21,770 nucleotides of DNA from a virus, in UHGV virus genome UHGV-1845973. One strand, given 5' to 3'. Below the pieces are notes generated by a model that searched no databases, was not told where the DNA came from, and worked only from the letters and a program-made list of their open reading frames with translations. A program made the translations under genes and the position numbers. Positions 4,035-12,495 of this stretch are shown in pieces. Positions within the stretch are counted from its first letter, which is position 1. Each line of letters begins with the position of its first letter.

Positions 4035-5732
4035 GTGAATAAAAACATTCAGCCAGCTCGTGATCGCGAGCGCGAGATTATGAATCGGGCGGCAAGCGTC
4101 ATGGCTATGACCGTCGATCCGACCACCGATGCAGCAGGCAACATGATTGCTGACCAGGCAGTAATGATGGAAAACCTGGATAAAGCAATCCAGAAAGTGC
4201 CTATGTTTGAAGGCGTAAATCCAGAGGTCGCTCGTCAGATCACTGGTGGGTGGGCTATGTCTCTGCATGAGTATAAACGTCAACATGGTCATTACCCGGC
4301 AAGTGACATCCTGGCGAACGCACACATGGCTCTTGAACGCCTAATGACTGAATGTGCCAGTGATACCCACGAAGGCACGGGTAAGGCAATGTTTGAGTCT
4401 GTCGCGCAATCAATGCGTAGCTCTGACGGCGTAATGAAAGTTGCTCAATATGCTGCTCTAATTCTGCCTGCCTCTCTGGGCGCTGCTACCAGTGATGCCT
4501 GTACTTTTGTTCCTTGTGATCGTGACGAGTCAAATATTTATGAACTGGTCAACGTAGCAGGCACAAAATTCGGCACCTTCAAACAAGGTGACGAACTGAA
4601 TATGCAGTCAGCTGGTGTTTATTCTCAAATGAAGCGCCTGTATACCCTTTCCACTAAAGGGGATGGCAGCACCAAAACCTTCCAGTTCGACATCCAAAAT
4701 TTTGAGGGACAATCCTGCCCGCTTCGCGCTGGTTATAGCAAACTGCTGATCAACCGCAAACCGTCCAAAGTTGACGACGGCGATGGCAACCTTTATTTCA
4801 ATGCTAAAGACAGCAAAGGTAAAGCTTTCTCAGCGACTGCCAAAGTCGCCTATGACACTGGTGTCATTGACATTACATTTACCCAGGCTCCGCCAGAAGG
4901 TACTGAAATTGCTGTTCAGGTCGAAATTAACATCGAGCGCAATCCAAGCCTGATTCCTGTGATCAACCAGGCTATGCGTAAGTACGAAGTTCGTCCGTCC
5001 CAGTACGTAATTGCTTCCGAACACACGGTAATGTCCGCATCCGATTTAAGCCGTGAGCACGGCCTTGAATTAGCGGCACTTCAGTTCTCCGCGATGCGTA
5101 ACTGGATCTCCCATGAAACCGACATCATGCGTCTGCGCACCCTGGTATTCCATACCGTTTATGGTCGTGAATTTGATGTGGCTCTGCCGGAAGCTCAAAA
5201 CTATGAGTCCTGGGTCGGCCTCCTGCGTCACGTAGTAAACGCTCTGTCTCAAGAAATGGCAAATCGTACCCTGACAACGGGTATTCGTGGCGGCTTTGCT
5301 GGTGGTGACGCCGCGAACTTCCTGCGCTCTCTGCCTCCACAGCACTTCCAGATCGCACCAGGTTACGTTCAGTCGCCGTATGTACAGTACATCGGCACCC
5401 TGTTTGGCACGATTCGTATTTACGAAGTGCCGCAACCTGTCTGTGAGCAATTCCAGGCACAGGGATATGACTTCGGGCTGGATGACATCTTCTTCTATGG
5501 GCGTGGCGAAGGCATCGGTAAAGCCGGTCTGATTGCTGGTGATGCAGTCCCAGCAATCCCTTACGTGCACGAAACCAATCCGTCTCTCGTTAACCGTACC
5601 ACTCTCTGGGGCAGTGCCATCAACGAAGTACATCCTCGCAACGGTGAAAACTACTTCACCCGCCTGCGTCTGACTCGCGCCAAAGAAGGTGCTATCGACA
5701 TGCTGACAGGCAAGGTTAACGAAAAAAAGTGA
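4035..5732 (+). CDS. Putative major capsid protein precursor (large head protein)
   Basis: 565-aa ORF with GTG start, the first gene of the long + strand structural operon, immediately upstream of an Ig-like protein gene and the sheath gene. The functional call rests on position and size only. Confidence 0.55.
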   Translation: MNKNIQPARDREREIMNRAASVMAMTVDPTTDAAGNMIADQAVMMENLDKAIQKVPMFEGVNPEVARQITGGWAMSLHEYKRQHGHYPASDILANAHMALERLMTECASDTHEGTGKAMFESVAQSMRSSDGVMKVAQYAALILPASLGAATSDACTFVPCDRDESNIYELVNVAGTKFGTFKQGDELNMQSAGVYSQMKRLYTLSTKGDGSTKTFQFDIQNFEGQSCPLRAGYSKLLINRKPSKVDDGDGNLYFNAKDSKGKAFSATAKVAYDTGVIDITFTQAPPEGTEIAVQVEINIERNPSLIPVINQAMRKYEVRPSQYVIASEHTVMSASDLSREHGLELAALQFSAMRNWISHETDIMRLRTLVFHTVYGREFDVALPEAQNYESWVGLLRHVVNALSQEMANRTLTTGIRGGFAGGDAANFLRSLPPQHFQIAPGYVQSPYVQYIGTLFGTIRIYEVPQPVCEQFQAQGYDFGLDDIFFYGRGEGIGKAGLIAGDAVPAIPYVHETNPSLVNRTTLWGSAINEVHPRNGENYFTRLRLTRAKEGAIDMLTGKVNEKK

Positions 5733-5836
5733 TGGTGGCGAACGTGTCGGTATCACCAACGTCACTTGACGTAGATGAAGGTGAAACTATCGCCGCGAAC
5801 ACTTCAAAGGCACAGAAAAAAACAAAGCAGAAGTAA
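5732..5836 (+). CDS. Small -1 frame ORF (34 aa) overlapping the capsid stop; possible frameshift extension or coupled small gene
   Basis: ATG overlaps the capsid TGA (TGATG). Encodes MVANVSVSPTSLDVDEGETIAANTSKAQKKTKQK; the VSVSPTSLDVDEGETIA part looks like the first beta-strands of a Big_2 domain. An A_AAA_AAG heptamer sits directly before the capsid stop. Confidence 0.3.
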   Translation: MVANVSVSPTSLDVDEGETIAANTSKAQKKTKQK

Positions 5837-5845
5837 GGCAAAAAC

Positions 5846-5866
5846 ACGCCCCTGATTAAGGGGCGT
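5846..5866 (+). terminator. GC-rich hairpin (8-bp stem ACGCCCCT/AGGGGCGT, 5-nt loop) without a U-tract
   Basis: Perfect inverted repeat read directly from the sequence. It is followed immediately by RBS AGGAG and the ATG at 5880, so it is more likely an attenuator or RNA-stability element than a full terminator. Confidence 0.3.
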
Positions 5867-5879
5867 TCAGGAGAAAAGA

Positions 5880-6158
5880 ATGGCAAACATTCAAGTAACT
5901 ATCACGCCATCTGACGCAACAGACAAATCTTTCACTGTTGAGTCAGATCACCCTGAAATTGTCCGGGTTGATGGCACTACATGTACCGCTCTTAAGGCCG
6001 GGCAGGCAGTGCTGACAATCAAAACAAATGACGGCAATAAAACCGCACAGTGCACAGTCACTGTTAGGGAGGCACATAAAAGCGTAAGCACCGTCAGTGT
6101 TGAACCAACTACGAAAGAAGTAACCGTAGGCGATAACTTCACGGTAAGCCAATCCTGA
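5880..6158 (+). CDS. Bacterial Ig-like (Big_2-type) domain protein, candidate capsid decoration protein
   Basis: ITPSDATDKSFTVESDHPEIVRVDGTTCTALKAGQAVLTIKTNDGNKTAQCTVTV matches the Big_2 core pattern. RBS AGGAG 6 nt upstream of the ATG. Confidence 0.65.
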   Translation: MANIQVTITPSDATDKSFTVESDHPEIVRVDGTTCTALKAGQAVLTIKTNDGNKTAQCTVTVREAHKSVSTVSVEPTTKEVTVGDNFTVSQS

Positions 6159-6162
6159 TCAG

Positions 6163-6189
6163 AGGCTGCCCATTAACCGTGGGTAGCCT
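6163..6189 (+). terminator. Hairpin (10-bp stem with one G-U pair, 7-nt loop) followed by a T/C-rich stretch
   Basis: AGGCTGCCCA ttaaccg TGGGTAGCCT followed by tgcctcgttctctcgcttt. Lies between the Ig-like gene and the sheath gene. Confidence 0.3.
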
Positions 6190-6225
6190 TGCCTCGTTCT
6201 CTCGCTTTAGAGGATAAGAACCAGC

Positions 6226-7884
6226 ATGAATAAGATTAGTTTTTCGGTAGGGCAGGCAGCTGGCGTTGCTGTAATGTCAGTAAATGCTGACGCTACCCTC
6301 ACCAATACCAGCGGTGGCGCATCCGTCTTTGCTGGGCTTGTAATATCGCGTCGTGGCGCACCGGGTAAGGTACTGAAAGTTGACGATACGACTTATCAAA
6401 GCGTATTAGGTTCACCGATTCACCCTCGCCAGGGCGCGGCATTTGAACCATATCGCCACGTGGAGCGTGCAGTAAAAGGCGGCTCTGGATATGTCGTTCG
6501 AGTTTGCGCTAAAGACATGAAGGTGCCGGGTATTTCTGTTTCCGTTGTGGGCAAAGCAAAAGCGGCAAAGGCGAGCAAAGAACTTTCCGTTGAACCTACT
6601 GAAACCACAGTAAATCCAGGTGACACATTAAGCGTTGGTGTTGCTTCAACTGCAACGACTCAATCAGTGACCTTCACACCCAAAGAGACGCCCCAGATTA
6701 AAGGTGAAGAGAAGGCATTATTCTTCATCAAAGATGGTGATGCATCTCAAAATCGCACGTTATCACTAACTCGCGATGATGAAGAAAGCGAACTCTTTAC
6801 GCTGACGCTGAAAGAAAAACAAACCGATGGGTCCATTGAGGTGCTGGAAAGCCACCAAGTGTCTTTCAATCCAGAAGGCACCAACGACATGGGCCAACCA
6901 GCATGGATTCCGACACTGCTTGAAAGCCAGTCCACTCGCATTGGTGCCGTACTGGCAGATAATGCAGAAGCATCCGCTGCTCAACTCATTTTTGAGGATG
7001 TAGCTTTTGAAGGTGGTACTGATGGAAATCTGTCCGAAATTAACGCTGCAGACTATCTGGAAGCATTAAAGGTTCTCGAAGCTTCAGAGGTTAATTACAC
7101 CGCATTGCTGTCACTGGGTTGTTATGACGCATCCGCCTTAGCCGCAATCAAAAAGCTGGCTGAAGATGTTCGCGTAGACATGTTCTATGACCTGAAGGGC
7201 AACCAGACACCTGAAAACGCTATTTCAGAAGCGAAAAGCCATAGTTTTGGCGGCTCACATCAACCAAGCCGTTACTACTTCCCGCTCTCCTGCCGAGATA
7301 CCTTCACTGGGATGAATGTCGTCTATGGCATTAGTTGCGACGCATTCGTAGCAAAAGCAAAAGGGGTAGCGCTGGTACCGGATGTTGGTGGTTGGCATTA
7401 CGCACCGGCAGGTATATCACGCGCGATTATTGATCGACAGAACATTGCCCGAATTCCAAATATCGGTGCAGTTGATCGTGAAGCGTTCGTTCTTGCGCGC
7501 ATTAATCCGGTTTCAGTTGCTGCTGATGGGTCCGTTTACATTGACGACTCTTTAACAACTTACAGCAAAAACAACTATCTGCGATTCCAGCATGTGTCTT
7601 CCTTGATGAACGCCATCGCCAGAGATTTCTATGAAGTAGCTCAGGCGATTAAGCACGAACCGGATGGCATTACCAAAGAAACGCTAATGAAAGCAATGAC
7701 TGAATTGCTTGACCGTTACGTTGCAGCCGGTGCGCTGGTTACTCCACGTGACAAGTCCCAGGGTGAAGATCCATACGTTGTTCAGGTTGTCCAAAAGGAC
7801 ATCGATCTGTGGGAAGTGTCCTGGTCTGTTTGTCCGACCGGTACAGCTCGCCGAATCGTCGGTAAGCCAATTCTGATGCGCTGA
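6226..7884 (+). CDS. Tail sheath protein (contractile tail) with an internal Ig-like segment
   Basis: 552 aa. The C-terminal region GWHYAPAGISRAIIDRQ...ARINPVSVAADGSVYIDDSLTTY...LRFQHVSSLMNAI follows the conserved sheath C-terminal pattern (SPAG..RG / INP / V..GD.T / RINVRRL in T4 gp18-type sheaths). An N-proximal segment ELSVEPTETTVNPGDTLSVGV is Big_2-like. Confidence 0.8.
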   Translation: MNKISFSVGQAAGVAVMSVNADATLTNTSGGASVFAGLVISRRGAPGKVLKVDDTTYQSVLGSPIHPRQGAAFEPYRHVERAVKGGSGYVVRVCAKDMKVPGISVSVVGKAKAAKASKELSVEPTETTVNPGDTLSVGVASTATTQSVTFTPKETPQIKGEEKALFFIKDGDASQNRTLSLTRDDEESELFTLTLKEKQTDGSIEVLESHQVSFNPEGTNDMGQPAWIPTLLESQSTRIGAVLADNAEASAAQLIFEDVAFEGGTDGNLSEINAADYLEALKVLEASEVNYTALLSLGCYDASALAAIKKLAEDVRVDMFYDLKGNQTPENAISEAKSHSFGGSHQPSRYYFPLSCRDTFTGMNVVYGISCDAFVAKAKGVALVPDVGGWHYAPAGISRAIIDRQNIARIPNIGAVDREAFVLARINPVSVAADGSVYIDDSLTTYSKNNYLRFQHVSSLMNAIARDFYEVAQAIKHEPDGITKETLMKAMTELLDRYVAAGALVTPRDKSQGEDPYVVQVVQKDIDLWEVSWSVCPTGTARRIVGKPILMR

Positions 7885-7927: not shown

Positions 7928-8662
7928 ATGAAAAATTATACTGCTGATCCTTTTATGCGTGCGATTTTCGGTTCTGGCTGCTTTGAAAGCGGTGATAAAT
8001 CCACGCAGGACAATAATGATAACGCCATGCTGGAAAGCGCAGGACAGAAAGGAAAGGACACTCAACCAAAGCCCAAAGACGACATTGAAACCGCGATGAT
8101 GGAAGCGGTTGAATCCCGTGCACAAGGTGATATGCGCAGCCTGGCAGCTTCCATGCTTGCTGGTTGGGTTGAAGATGGTGATCCGGAGGCTGACTCATTT
8201 GATGCATTAGCAATCACTATGGCTGGCCTGGCTGATATCGATGAAGACACCGATTTCACCGATGAGCAAATCGATGCTTATAACGATGCACTCGCAGCTC
8301 TTGCTGATGCAGCTGTTGCGCTTGGCGCTGATCAGGATGATGTAACCGAAATGATCGACGATGAAGATGACTCAGCTGCCGAACGTGTTTATGACGCTCT
8401 TTCCGAAAGCGACACCGACATGATGGAAACAGCTATTGCCATTTACACCGTTGCTGGTGGTGATAGCGCAATGCTGGAAGCGGTACGTAAAAAAGTGGTT
8501 CGTGATGGCAAGGTAACCATCATCCGTAAACGCCCGCGTCCTCGCCGCATGACGTCATTGCAAAAACAGGCGCTGAAAAAAGCACGCCGCAAAGCACATA
8601 CATCCGTAGCGAATATCAACCGCAAAAAATCAATGCGCATTCGCAAAAAACGCGGTTTGTAA
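7928..8662 (+). CDS. Hypothetical virion-associated protein with a strongly acidic body and a strongly basic C-terminal tail
   Basis: 244 aa from ATG 7928 (RBS GAGAGAGG upstream). About 190 D/E-rich residues (e.g. MIDDEDDSAAE) are followed by the basic tail RKRPRPRRMTSLQKQALKKARRKAHTSVANINRKKSMRIRKKRGL. Confidence 0.55.
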   Translation: MKNYTADPFMRAIFGSGCFESGDKSTQDNNDNAMLESAGQKGKDTQPKPKDDIETAMMEAVESRAQGDMRSLAASMLAGWVEDGDPEADSFDALAITMAGLADIDEDTDFTDEQIDAYNDALAALADAAVALGADQDDVTEMIDDEDDSAAERVYDALSESDTDMMETAIAIYTVAGGDSAMLEAVRKKVVRDGKVTIIRKRPRPRRMTSLQKQALKKARRKAHTSVANINRKKSMRIRKKRGL

Positions 8663-12262: not shown

Positions 12263-12495
12263 AGTGGATATCCGGCTTTTTTTCCCGTCAGCACACATCC
12301 TACATCCCGTCAGCACACATGTAAAACCCTCCAGCACACATATTTTTCCCGTCAGCACACATCGTTCTCCCTCCAGCACACATCTGAATAGTGGTTAAAG
12401 CCTTATGTGGCGCGGCCTGAAGAGCTACGGGATCTATTTGGTACTATATGGATCTAATCAGGATCTATATATTGGATCTATCCTGTGGATAAAAA
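12263..12495. other. oriR-like replication origin: iterons, GATC-heptamer cluster and DnaA box
   Basis: Perfect DnaA box TGTGGATAA at 12484..12492. Four GATC sites inside GGATCTA heptamers at 12431, 12451, 12462 and 12475. A degenerate DnaA-like box AGTGGATAT at 12263. This DnaA box / methylatable GATC repeats / 5 iterons / repA layout matches the P1 R origin as I recall it. Confidence 0.7.
12283..12385. repeat. incC-like origin iterons (5 direct repeats) covering the repA promoter region
   Basis: Five copies of CCC[G/T][T/C]CAGCACACAT at about 12283, 12305, 12326, 12348 and 12368, regularly spaced at ~21-22 bp and all in the same orientation, immediately upstream of repA. Confidence 0.85.

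Follow-up and report, generated by a model that had tools for sequence, protein, structure and literature searches.

The DNA analyzed here, a 21,770-nt stretch of the virus genome UHGV-1845973 (hereafter the window), carries between its major capsid protein (MCP) gene and its tail sheath gene a small gene for a 92-aa Ig-like protein and, overlapping the end of the capsid gene in the -1 frame, a 35-codon open reading frame (ORF). Together these two reading frames hold the pieces of an Ig-like Big_2 domain, the first of which the capsid gene is predicted to reach by programmed ribosomal frameshifting. As judged from its similarity to known phages, the window is a D6-like phage-plasmid of the P1 family: over region 5400-6900 it shares 99.3% identity with Escherichia phage D6 and 100% with an E. 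coli plasmid, and the layout of its ORFs matches that of D6. The MCP is 99.5% identical to its D6 counterpart and 44% identical to P1 gp23 (match to PDB 9ukm Gp23, E=1.5e-164), and the tail sheath is 41% identical to P1 gp22 (match to PDB 8jaj Gp22, E=7e-122). This locus was found in 83 of 5426 complete E. coli genomes (~1.5%) and was plasmid-borne in every case. In P1 and in Cronobacter phage JK004, gene 23 leads directly to gene 22 and no Ig module lies between them. For comparison, 36 D6-like loci were gathered from phage, plasmid, IMG/VR, ENA, NCBI and Logan sequences, 34 of which have the A7 heptamer described below. The features of the locus are listed in Table 1.

Table 1. Features at the capsid-sheath junction of the window, with coordinates on the window.
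Feature	Coordinates	Strand	Remarks
MCP gene, P1 gp23 homologue, 565 aa	4035..5732	+	Zero frame; stop TGA at 5730-5732
-1 slippery heptamer A_AAA_AAG	5723..5729	+	In phase; zero-frame codons GAA AAA AAG TGA, read from sequence
-1 frame ORF, 35 codons plus TAA	5729..5836	+	Annotated separately as orf50 in D6
Predicted frameshift-stimulatory stem-loop	5735..5796	+	5-nt spacer after heptamer; RNAalifold, RNAfold
Stem-loop helices	5735-5741/5790-5796, 5749-5751/5786-5788, 5754-5757/5780-5783	+	Outer helix pairs GUGGCGA with UCGCCGC
Conserved intergenic hairpin ACGCCCCT-GATT-AAGGGGCGT	5846..5866	+	Between extension end and 92-aa gene; no U-tract on + strand
Shine-Dalgarno sequence AGGAG	5869..5873	+	6 nt before ATG of 92-aa gene; read from sequence
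92-aa Ig-like protein gene	5880..6158	+	orf49 in D6
92-aa gene, codons 1-64	5880..6071	+	Big_2 strands B-G, without strand A/A'; Pfam, repeat alignment
92-aa gene, codons 65-92 plus stop	6072..6158	+	Linker, strands A and A' and first 7 residues of B of a second, truncated domain
Tail sheath gene, P1 gp22 homologue, 552 aa	6226..7884	+	Context, outside the split domain
Sheath residues ~119-158, ELSVEPTETTVNPGDTLSV then D6-lineage insertion	6580..6699	+	Weakly like Big_2 strands A-C

The A7 run at 5722..5728 falls within a heptamer whose phase is the exact one for tandem -1 slippage, and the 35-codon ORF lies in the -1 frame relative to the MCP. A TAA at 5717 closes this frame, which opens only at 5720, so the overlap between the two reading frames is essentially the heptamer itself. 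The heptamer is invariant in all 34 loci and in 10 haplotypes, and a zero-frame stop always follows directly on its 3' side, but as TGA, TAG or TAA depending on the haplotype. The 80-nt segment containing the predicted stem-loop has a folding free energy (dG) of -25.1 kcal/mol (z = -3.1), a stability equaled in 0 of 200 shuffles; all 14 pairs are retained across the 10 haplotypes, one of them by a compensatory change (G-C to A-U), and synonymous divergence (pS) in this stretch is about half that of its flanks (0.21 vs 0.40-0.54), as is expected of an RNA element. An in-phase X_XXY_YYZ heptamer, a conserved open -1 ORF and an RNA structure 5-9 nt downstream, the features by which a -1 programmed ribosomal frameshift is recognized, are all present, and by these features the capsid gene ends in a conserved bacterial -1 frameshift cassette. 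Among heptamers in E. coli, A_AAA_AAG is the one most prone to shifting, and it is the one found at the dnaX site; where expression is very high, so shifty a sequence should be lost unless it has a use (PMC5009743). That the capsid gene has strictly retained it at its end argues that the heptamer is in use. Further AAAAAAG heptamers occur in the window at 8489, 8576, 14030 and 15293 on the + strand and at 12282 and 11483 on the - strand.

The first-pass annotation of this DNA had raised the possibility that the A7 run is a homopolymer error. An error that breaks a continuous ORF, or a chance likeness of the neighboring peptides to the first strand of an Ig domain, would make the whole arrangement an artefact, and two long-read-type assemblies with A5 or A6 and with fused or altered capsid annotations could be cited for it. 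A7 is, however, shared by 34 independent sequences including phage D6, finished plasmids, IMG/VR entries and metagenome contigs, so that the relatives already refute an error; the A5 assembly has further single-base deletions nearby, the frame-corrected extension still ends after 35 codons, and the shuffles and the window-wide scan given below exclude chance for the extension as well as for the 92-aa tail. We therefore regard an artefact as barely conceivable. The two assemblies (NZ_CP031917 and NZ_CP122593) have A5 or A6 at 5721-5729 and carry annotated "capsid proteins" of 599 and 577 aa, the former being essentially the predicted trans-frame product, made in this case by an assembly indel.

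Slippage at the heptamer would produce the MCP plus VMVANVSVSPTSLDVDEGETIAANTSKAQKKTKQK (35 residues), with a predicted junction reading …NEKK and then VMVANVSVSPTSLDVDEGETIAANTSK. The -1 ORF is exactly 35 codons long in 33 of the 34 heptamer-bearing loci, and the exception differs in a second A-run. This second A7 run, at 5816-5822 inside the extension, is found in the D6/window clade only, the other clades having GAAAACA; in one IMG/VR contig its length differs, and the extension there has 41 aa and ends ...KKQSRSKAKTRP. The first 19 residues of the extension consist of Big_2 strands A/A' plus a turn and are followed by a Lys-rich remainder that is probably disordered; the first-strand peptide itself, VSVSPTSLDVDEGETIA, is encoded at 5744..5794 in the -1 frame relative to the capsid gene. 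Across three clades, the ratio of nonsynonymous to synonymous substitution rates (dN/dS) of the extension is 0.35 in the -1 frame vs 3.5 and 0.83 in the other two frames. Because the A7 run is the slippery site of a conserved -1 signal, the upstream peptide is, as far as sequence can indicate, most likely part of the capsid protein today and not a relic in a different frame.

The same codons have been annotated as a CDS in D6, and could represent a separate small gene (5729/5732..5836) that is translated by termination-reinitiation at TGATG into a free 34-aa peptide. The TGA/ATG overlap of the window/D6 clade, and the TAATG of loci L021 and L031, would suit such a gene. Two clades, however, have GCA in place of the ATG (the -1 ORF begins GTA GCA GTG...), leaving only a GTG without a Shine-Dalgarno sequence, so that a separately initiated gene is unlikely in those clades, which nonetheless retain the ORF, the heptamer and the stem-loop. 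An upstream Shine-Dalgarno sequence is absent in every clade, and the -1 frame opens exactly at the heptamer. We consider a separate gene improbable, and treat the peptide below as a frameshift extension of the capsid protein.

Downstream, the 92-aa protein matches the Pfam Big_2 profile (PF02368) with 34.1 bits, above the gathering threshold of 22.8 bits, but the match runs from residues 4-60 over profile positions 22-79 of 79. A complete Big_2 domain (profile 1-79) is thus not contained in one polypeptide here, as the first ~21 positions are missing from the 92-aa protein, positions 2-21 being covered by the -1 extension of the capsid gene. The protein ends in ...VSTVSVEPTTKEVTVGDNFTVSQS, which resembles a first strand once more. 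A full-library HMMER search with the 92-aa protein returned 19,121 matches with giant tandem Big_2 arrays at the top, the best of which align in unbroken stretches over query residues 2-90; such arrays dominate a deep protein search to the point that small out-of-register Big_2 proteins would be masked. By this alignment the 92-aa protein corresponds to a single period of a tandem Big_2 array whose cut points are shifted by ~20 residues from the domain boundaries. In a word-indexed homologue search the matches were confined to D6-family proteins, and the closest relatives outside the D6 family in phage contigs are tail tube domains of the lambda gpV type, namely complete Big_2 domains at the C-terminus (36-45% identity). 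In the same three clades, dN/dS is 0.071 for the C-terminal 200 codons of the MCP, 0.084 for the core of the 92-aa protein (codons 1-64) and 0.235 for its tail (codons 65-92), the last vs 1.6 and 2.6 in the other frames. Both orphan segments, the capsid extension and the 92-aa tail, are by this measure under purifying selection and not drifting.

The proposal that the 92-aa core lacks its first strand, and that first-strand-like segments are encoded in the upstream peptide, at the end of the 92-aa protein and in the tail sheath, goes back to the first-pass annotation. Its coordinates for the quoted peptides, the A7 run and the 92-aa ORF were confirmed in the sequence, the profile match given above bears out the missing strand, and the following comparisons support the first two of the three segments. 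Candidate 18-19-mers were placed ahead of the 92-aa Big_2 core and rescored with Pfam. The core alone scored 35.2 bits (profile 23-79), rising to 44.2 bits (2-79) with the upstream peptide, to 38.3 bits (2-79) with the C-terminal segment and to 45.6 bits (5-79) with the sheath segment; three shuffled peptides, two capsid beta segments and the equivalent segment of the P1 sheath gave no extension of the match. With a custom hidden Markov model (HMM) built from 61 natural tandem Big_2 repeats, the core scored 72.1 bits, and the upstream peptide, the tail and the sheath segment raised this to 89.2 (+17.1), 84.1 (+12.0) and 82.6 (+10.5), respectively. These grafted values were reached by 0 of 500 shuffles per segment (1500 total) and by 0 of 2190 background 19-mers. 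When all 18,373 19-mers from six-frame ORFs of the whole window were scanned, the upstream peptide ranked first and the C-terminal segment third, after a 19-mer within the 92-aa ORF's own Big_2 core.

When the extension is joined to the 92-aa protein, the combined sequence aligns over its full length with the Big_2 domain in the solved structure 7quz, and likewise with 507 stretches of natural repeats. In the multiple alignment, VMVANVSVSPTSLDVDEGE stands opposite strands A/A' and the Gly turn, and M1 of the 92-aa protein is the first residue past the A'-B turn; the 16 residues TIAANTSKAQKKTKQK form an insertion located exactly at this turn, and KSVSTVSVEPTTKEVTVGD-NFTVSQS stands opposite A, A' and the first seven residues of B in the next repeat. 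In terms of this alignment, the extension and the 92-aa protein together are a tandem Big_2 array cut out of register. A single-sequence AlphaFold2 model of the two was uninformative, with a predicted local distance difference test score (pLDDT) of 34.7. Guided by a 68-row alignment, AlphaFold2 modeled the fused extension and 92-aa protein with a mean pLDDT of 75 and a predicted template modeling score (pTM) of 0.59; extension residues 1-20 have a pLDDT of 77-83, with strands at residues 5-9, 12-16 and 20-24; residues 27-34, the Lys-rich loop, fall below 50, and the core has 77-87. This model superimposes on the Big_2 domain of 7quz with 1.1 A over 99 columns and also matches lambda gpV and T5 pb6.

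The sheath segment, ELSVEPTETTVNPGDTLSVGV, is of a different standing. The first-pass annotation had placed it at about 6586..6650; it is present, but its actual coordinates are 6580..6642. In the scan of the window it was outscored by two chance matches in non-coding frames (83.4 and 82.7), and in the alignment with P1 gp22 its ELSVEPTETTVNPGDTLSV stands opposite SALPYGSEIELDSGEAFAI, the lineage-specific insertion coming only after it, so this hairpin was already owned by the sheath. D6-type sheaths have extra residues relative to P1 gp22 at ~109-158 (window 6550-6700), amounting to 34 gap residues in the pairwise and ~29 in the multiple alignment, and this insertion region is surface-exposed and varies more among D6-like relatives than any other part of the sheath. 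A comparison of the sheath with Big_2 strands A-C by hhalign gave a weak 39-column match (P ~0.001, probability 22%). The segment was accordingly downgraded as a third orphan strand, given its P1 gp22 equivalent and the higher-scoring chance matches; it probably belongs to the sheath's own surface beta-sandwich, which possibly carries an old Ig-derived patch.

Between the extension and the 92-aa gene lies a conserved hairpin (5846-5866), which shows a compensatory change from a C-G to an A-T pair in the L008-L013 clade. Relatives from Pantoea, Enterobacter, Citrobacter and Xenorhabdus have an equivalent hairpin right after the MCP stop, which places the extension within the capsid gene unit and the 92-aa gene outside it. 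A role for this hairpin as a minus-strand terminator was rejected, as its T-run is deleted in other clades. A GGAG is kept in every clade 6-7 nt before the 92-aa ATG, and the distance from the extension stop to this ATG is 37, 38, 39, 42 or 43 nt, meaning that there is no conserved frame relation between the extension and the 92-aa gene. Read in this way, the 92-aa gene is translated from its own Shine-Dalgarno site, independently of the extension. We also considered whether the interval arose by an 88-nt insertion with target duplication, deletion of which would give an in-frame complete domain. A direct repeat is present in the window (GCGAACA(C)TTCAA(A)G at 5795 and GCAAACATTCAAG at 5883), but it is degraded in other clades and the length of the interval varies, and we do not rely on this origin.

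A second recoding event could in principle join the two pieces. After the -1 shift, ribosomes would hop from AAG-TAA (5831-5836) to an in-frame AAA before the 92-aa ATG, as in T4 gene 60, to make a continuous capsid-Big_2 fusion of ~690 aa with a Lys-rich loop, in which ...KTKQK is joined to (R)MANIQVTITPSDATDK. Every clade has a Lys take-off codon followed by a stop, a hairpin in the gap and a GGAG 5' of the in-frame AAA, and an intact Big_2 fold could accommodate the fused sequence. All of these features are nevertheless explained by ordinary punctuation, namely a stop, an ancestral post-capsid hairpin and a Shine-Dalgarno sequence with an A-rich spacer; the gap varies from 34 to 40 nt across clades, and bypassing of this kind is extremely rare. 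We hold such double recoding to be very unlikely.

With two separately translated products, the following scheme can be proposed. A fraction of the ribosomes would slip on the two Lys codons at the end of the capsid gene, bypass the stop and add 35 residues, giving a minor capsid species of ~600 aa beside the major one of 565 aa, such that perhaps a few percent or more of the capsid subunits gain the extension. The A/A' strand of this extension would then supply the missing edge strand in trans and dock the 92-aa protein on the capsid surface. Docking by the extension appears probable given that purifying selection still acts on both orphan strand segments. As to origin, the locus may descend from an ancestral frameshift-appended Ig extension of the T3/A2 type that came to be broken up by a stop codon, the post-capsid hairpin and a newly acquired translation start, and the pieces do look like an originally continuous capsid-Ig arrangement, as the first-pass annotation had suggested. 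We place moderate confidence in this reading as a whole, that is, in a capsid Ig extension appended by frameshifting and later split, with the 92-aa protein docking by strand donation.

The C-terminal strand of the 92-aa protein would be unable to reach the vacant site of its own domain, because the linker from strand G to the tail strand A has only ~4-6 residues, the usual length in tandem arrays. For the same geometric reason we rejected a circular permutation in which the tail of the 92-aa protein completes its own domain: the linker would need to reach from one end of the domain to the other. The C-terminal strand may instead be free for a further copy of the protein or for another partner, and frameshift efficiency would fix the number of capsid subunits that bear a docking strand. 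A more speculative extension of the scheme, which we put forward only tentatively, is that the split Ig domain is a capsid docking device on which copies of the 92-aa protein chain non-covalently through their A/A' strands, the number of chains being set by the efficiency of the frameshift.

Several observations weigh against parts of this interpretation. The trans-frame capsid species is a prediction from sequence only, and RNA covariation in the stem-loop is thin, as 12 of its 14 pairs are invariant and the single compensatory pair is not significant (170 of 500 shuffles). The RNA stem overlaps codons of the extension, so conservation of the peptide may partly reflect constraint on the RNA, and the overlap of the D6-clade capsid stop with an ATG (TGATG) makes a separately initiated 34-aa peptide possible there. 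In the AlphaFold2 model the C-terminal segment of the 92-aa protein has a pLDDT of 55-72, is mostly coil and is not confidently docked, and the model as a whole is of a covalently linked chain guided by an alignment of intact domains, so that it speaks for compatibility and not for binding. Loss of strand A also need not unfold an Ig domain, titin I27 being an example, and complementation is perhaps unneeded.

These doubts leave room for the view that the locus is evolutionary debris, its segments left behind by imprecise recombination of Ig modules; the 92-aa protein would then be a stand-alone decoration or adhesion protein, the frameshifting incidental and the tail irrelevant. Non-homologous Ig shuffling of the Fraser type is accepted background (PMC5009743). 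The tails at the MCP C-termini of this family are arbitrary, of low complexity and specific to each lineage, such that almost anything seems to be tolerated, the Ig module is limited to one clade, and the uncertain placement of the 92-aa tail and the possible contribution of RNA structure to conservation of the extension would both be accommodated. Debris should not, however, have kept the heptamer, the adjacent stop, the stem-loop and the 35-codon length despite synonymous-site differences of 40-70% in the flanking genes, nor should dN/dS be clearly <1 for both segments in the proposed frames only; a useless A_AAA_AAG in a very highly expressed gene should also have been lost (PMC5009743). 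We think this explanation rather unlikely. The first-pass annotation had further held that relatives with the same ORF boundaries and an intact single-domain decoration protein would speak against a split domain. Relatives with 75 to 99% protein identity do share the boundaries, but an intact single domain is present in none, and because of this, and because both orphan segments are under purifying selection, the shared boundaries do not amount to an ordinary arrangement.

Frameshift-added Ig-like extensions of capsid proteins are known from T3, from Lactobacillus phage A2 (gp5A/5B) and from Listeria phages A118 and A500 (Fraser et al. 2006), and are thought to arise from promiscuous Ig modules landing out of frame (PMC5009743). 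As in these phages, the window is predicted to have a -1 shift close to the capsid gene's 3' end, a minor C-terminally extended species and an Ig-like addition, with the ratio set by the efficiency of the shift. Unlike in T3 and A2, the predicted addition is not a whole domain but only the A/A' strands plus a Lys-rich tail, the rest of the domain being a separate gene product. The signal itself resembles that of E. coli dnaX, with an identical heptamer, a single tRNA-Lys, a stem-loop after a short spacer and the same host; unlike dnaX, it has no conserved upstream Shine-Dalgarno-like stimulator, its zero-frame stop adjoins the heptamer, and the shifted product would be longer rather than shorter.

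The 92-aa protein likewise has partial counterparts among phage structural proteins. The tail tube Big_2 domains, as in lambda gpV (PDB 2l04/7t4f) and T5 pb6, are its closest relatives outside D6 in phage contigs and also the structural matches of the model, but these domains are complete and covalently attached to their carriers. T4 Hoc, T5 pb10 and N4 gp17 are, like the 92-aa protein, small Ig-like proteins encoded beside head genes and probably displayed on the surface; they bind through a dedicated capsid-binding domain, whereas the 92-aa protein has only an incomplete Ig domain and an orphan strand segment. In chaperone-usher pili and in the type V pili of Bacteroidia, an incomplete Ig-like fold is filled by a donor strand from another subunit, and in type V pili it is the C-terminal strand that fills the groove left by the removed N-terminal strand of the next subunit. 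The D6-type locus would share with these systems a missing edge strand whose match lies on another polypeptide, and its putative geometry would be the same as in type V pili. Both the sequence and the fused, alignment-guided model are compatible with such a fit. Unlike in pili, there is no chaperone or protease here, and the resemblance is one of logic and sequence compatibility only.

Recognition of the frameshift corrects the capsid gene model of a widespread phage-plasmid family, in which the extension appears in D6 as an unrelated 34-aa hypothetical gene. The locus would also document the fate of a frameshift-appended Ig module after its interruption, with both halves persisting under selection, and if the halves re-associate they would form a natural split-domain tag. 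To our knowledge, this would be the first known case of an Ig decoration protein anchored by strand donation from a recoded capsid subunit. If true, it would bring donor-strand complementation into a virus particle and couple it to recoding, and would be relevant to phage display, capsid engineering and the dosing of Ig-like surface domains on virions.

The P1 capsid has T=13 symmetry and 775 copies of gp23, which has an HK97 fold with an outward-facing I-domain, and the head proteins listed for P1 by its authors include no decoration protein (PMC12810830). Among MCP relatives of 39-66% identity (from Pantoea, Enterobacter, Citrobacter, Rosenbergiella, Xenorhabdus and others), an uninterrupted capsid-frameshift-Big_2 arrangement was not found, and these have no Ig module. 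The C-terminal tails of such homologues (L058-L065, L068 and L071) are hypervariable, lineage-specific and of low complexity, being T/G/A-rich in Pantoea and Enterobacter, E/P/D/K-rich in Citrobacter and K/N/D-rich in Xenorhabdus, and in L071 the MCP is prolonged in frame by ~70 aa rich in S/T/D/N. The C-terminus of the capsid protein seems to tolerate the display of added sequence. In a Rosenbergiella metrosideri contig (L061:4690-4925) whose MCP is 60% identical, the MCP gene ends GCG GGA AAG TGA, with an in-phase G_GGA_AAG heptamer of the lambda G/GT type directly before the stop, a 9-bp hairpin (CGGTAGACG/CGTCTACCG) past the stop and a -1 ORF of ~75 codons that would encode an Ala/Lys/Asp-rich low-complexity tail. 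This appears to be another candidate capsid frameshift, independent of the D6-type one, in this family of phages, and it carries a different payload.

Two further features of the D6-like loci may be mentioned. Just past the 92-aa stop, the window has a hairpin, AGGCTGCCCA-ttaaccg-TGGGTAGCCT, at 6163-6189, which may be a terminator or attenuator ahead of the sheath gene; at the same site a relative from S. dysenteriae has a different yet self-complementary sequence (GGACTCCTCAC/GTGGGGAGTCC). Some D6-like contigs (L009 and L010 1-401) also carry, a few genes upstream of the capsid gene, an IS605 OrfB/TnpB-like gene that is absent from the window and that encodes a Cas12f1-like TNB domain.

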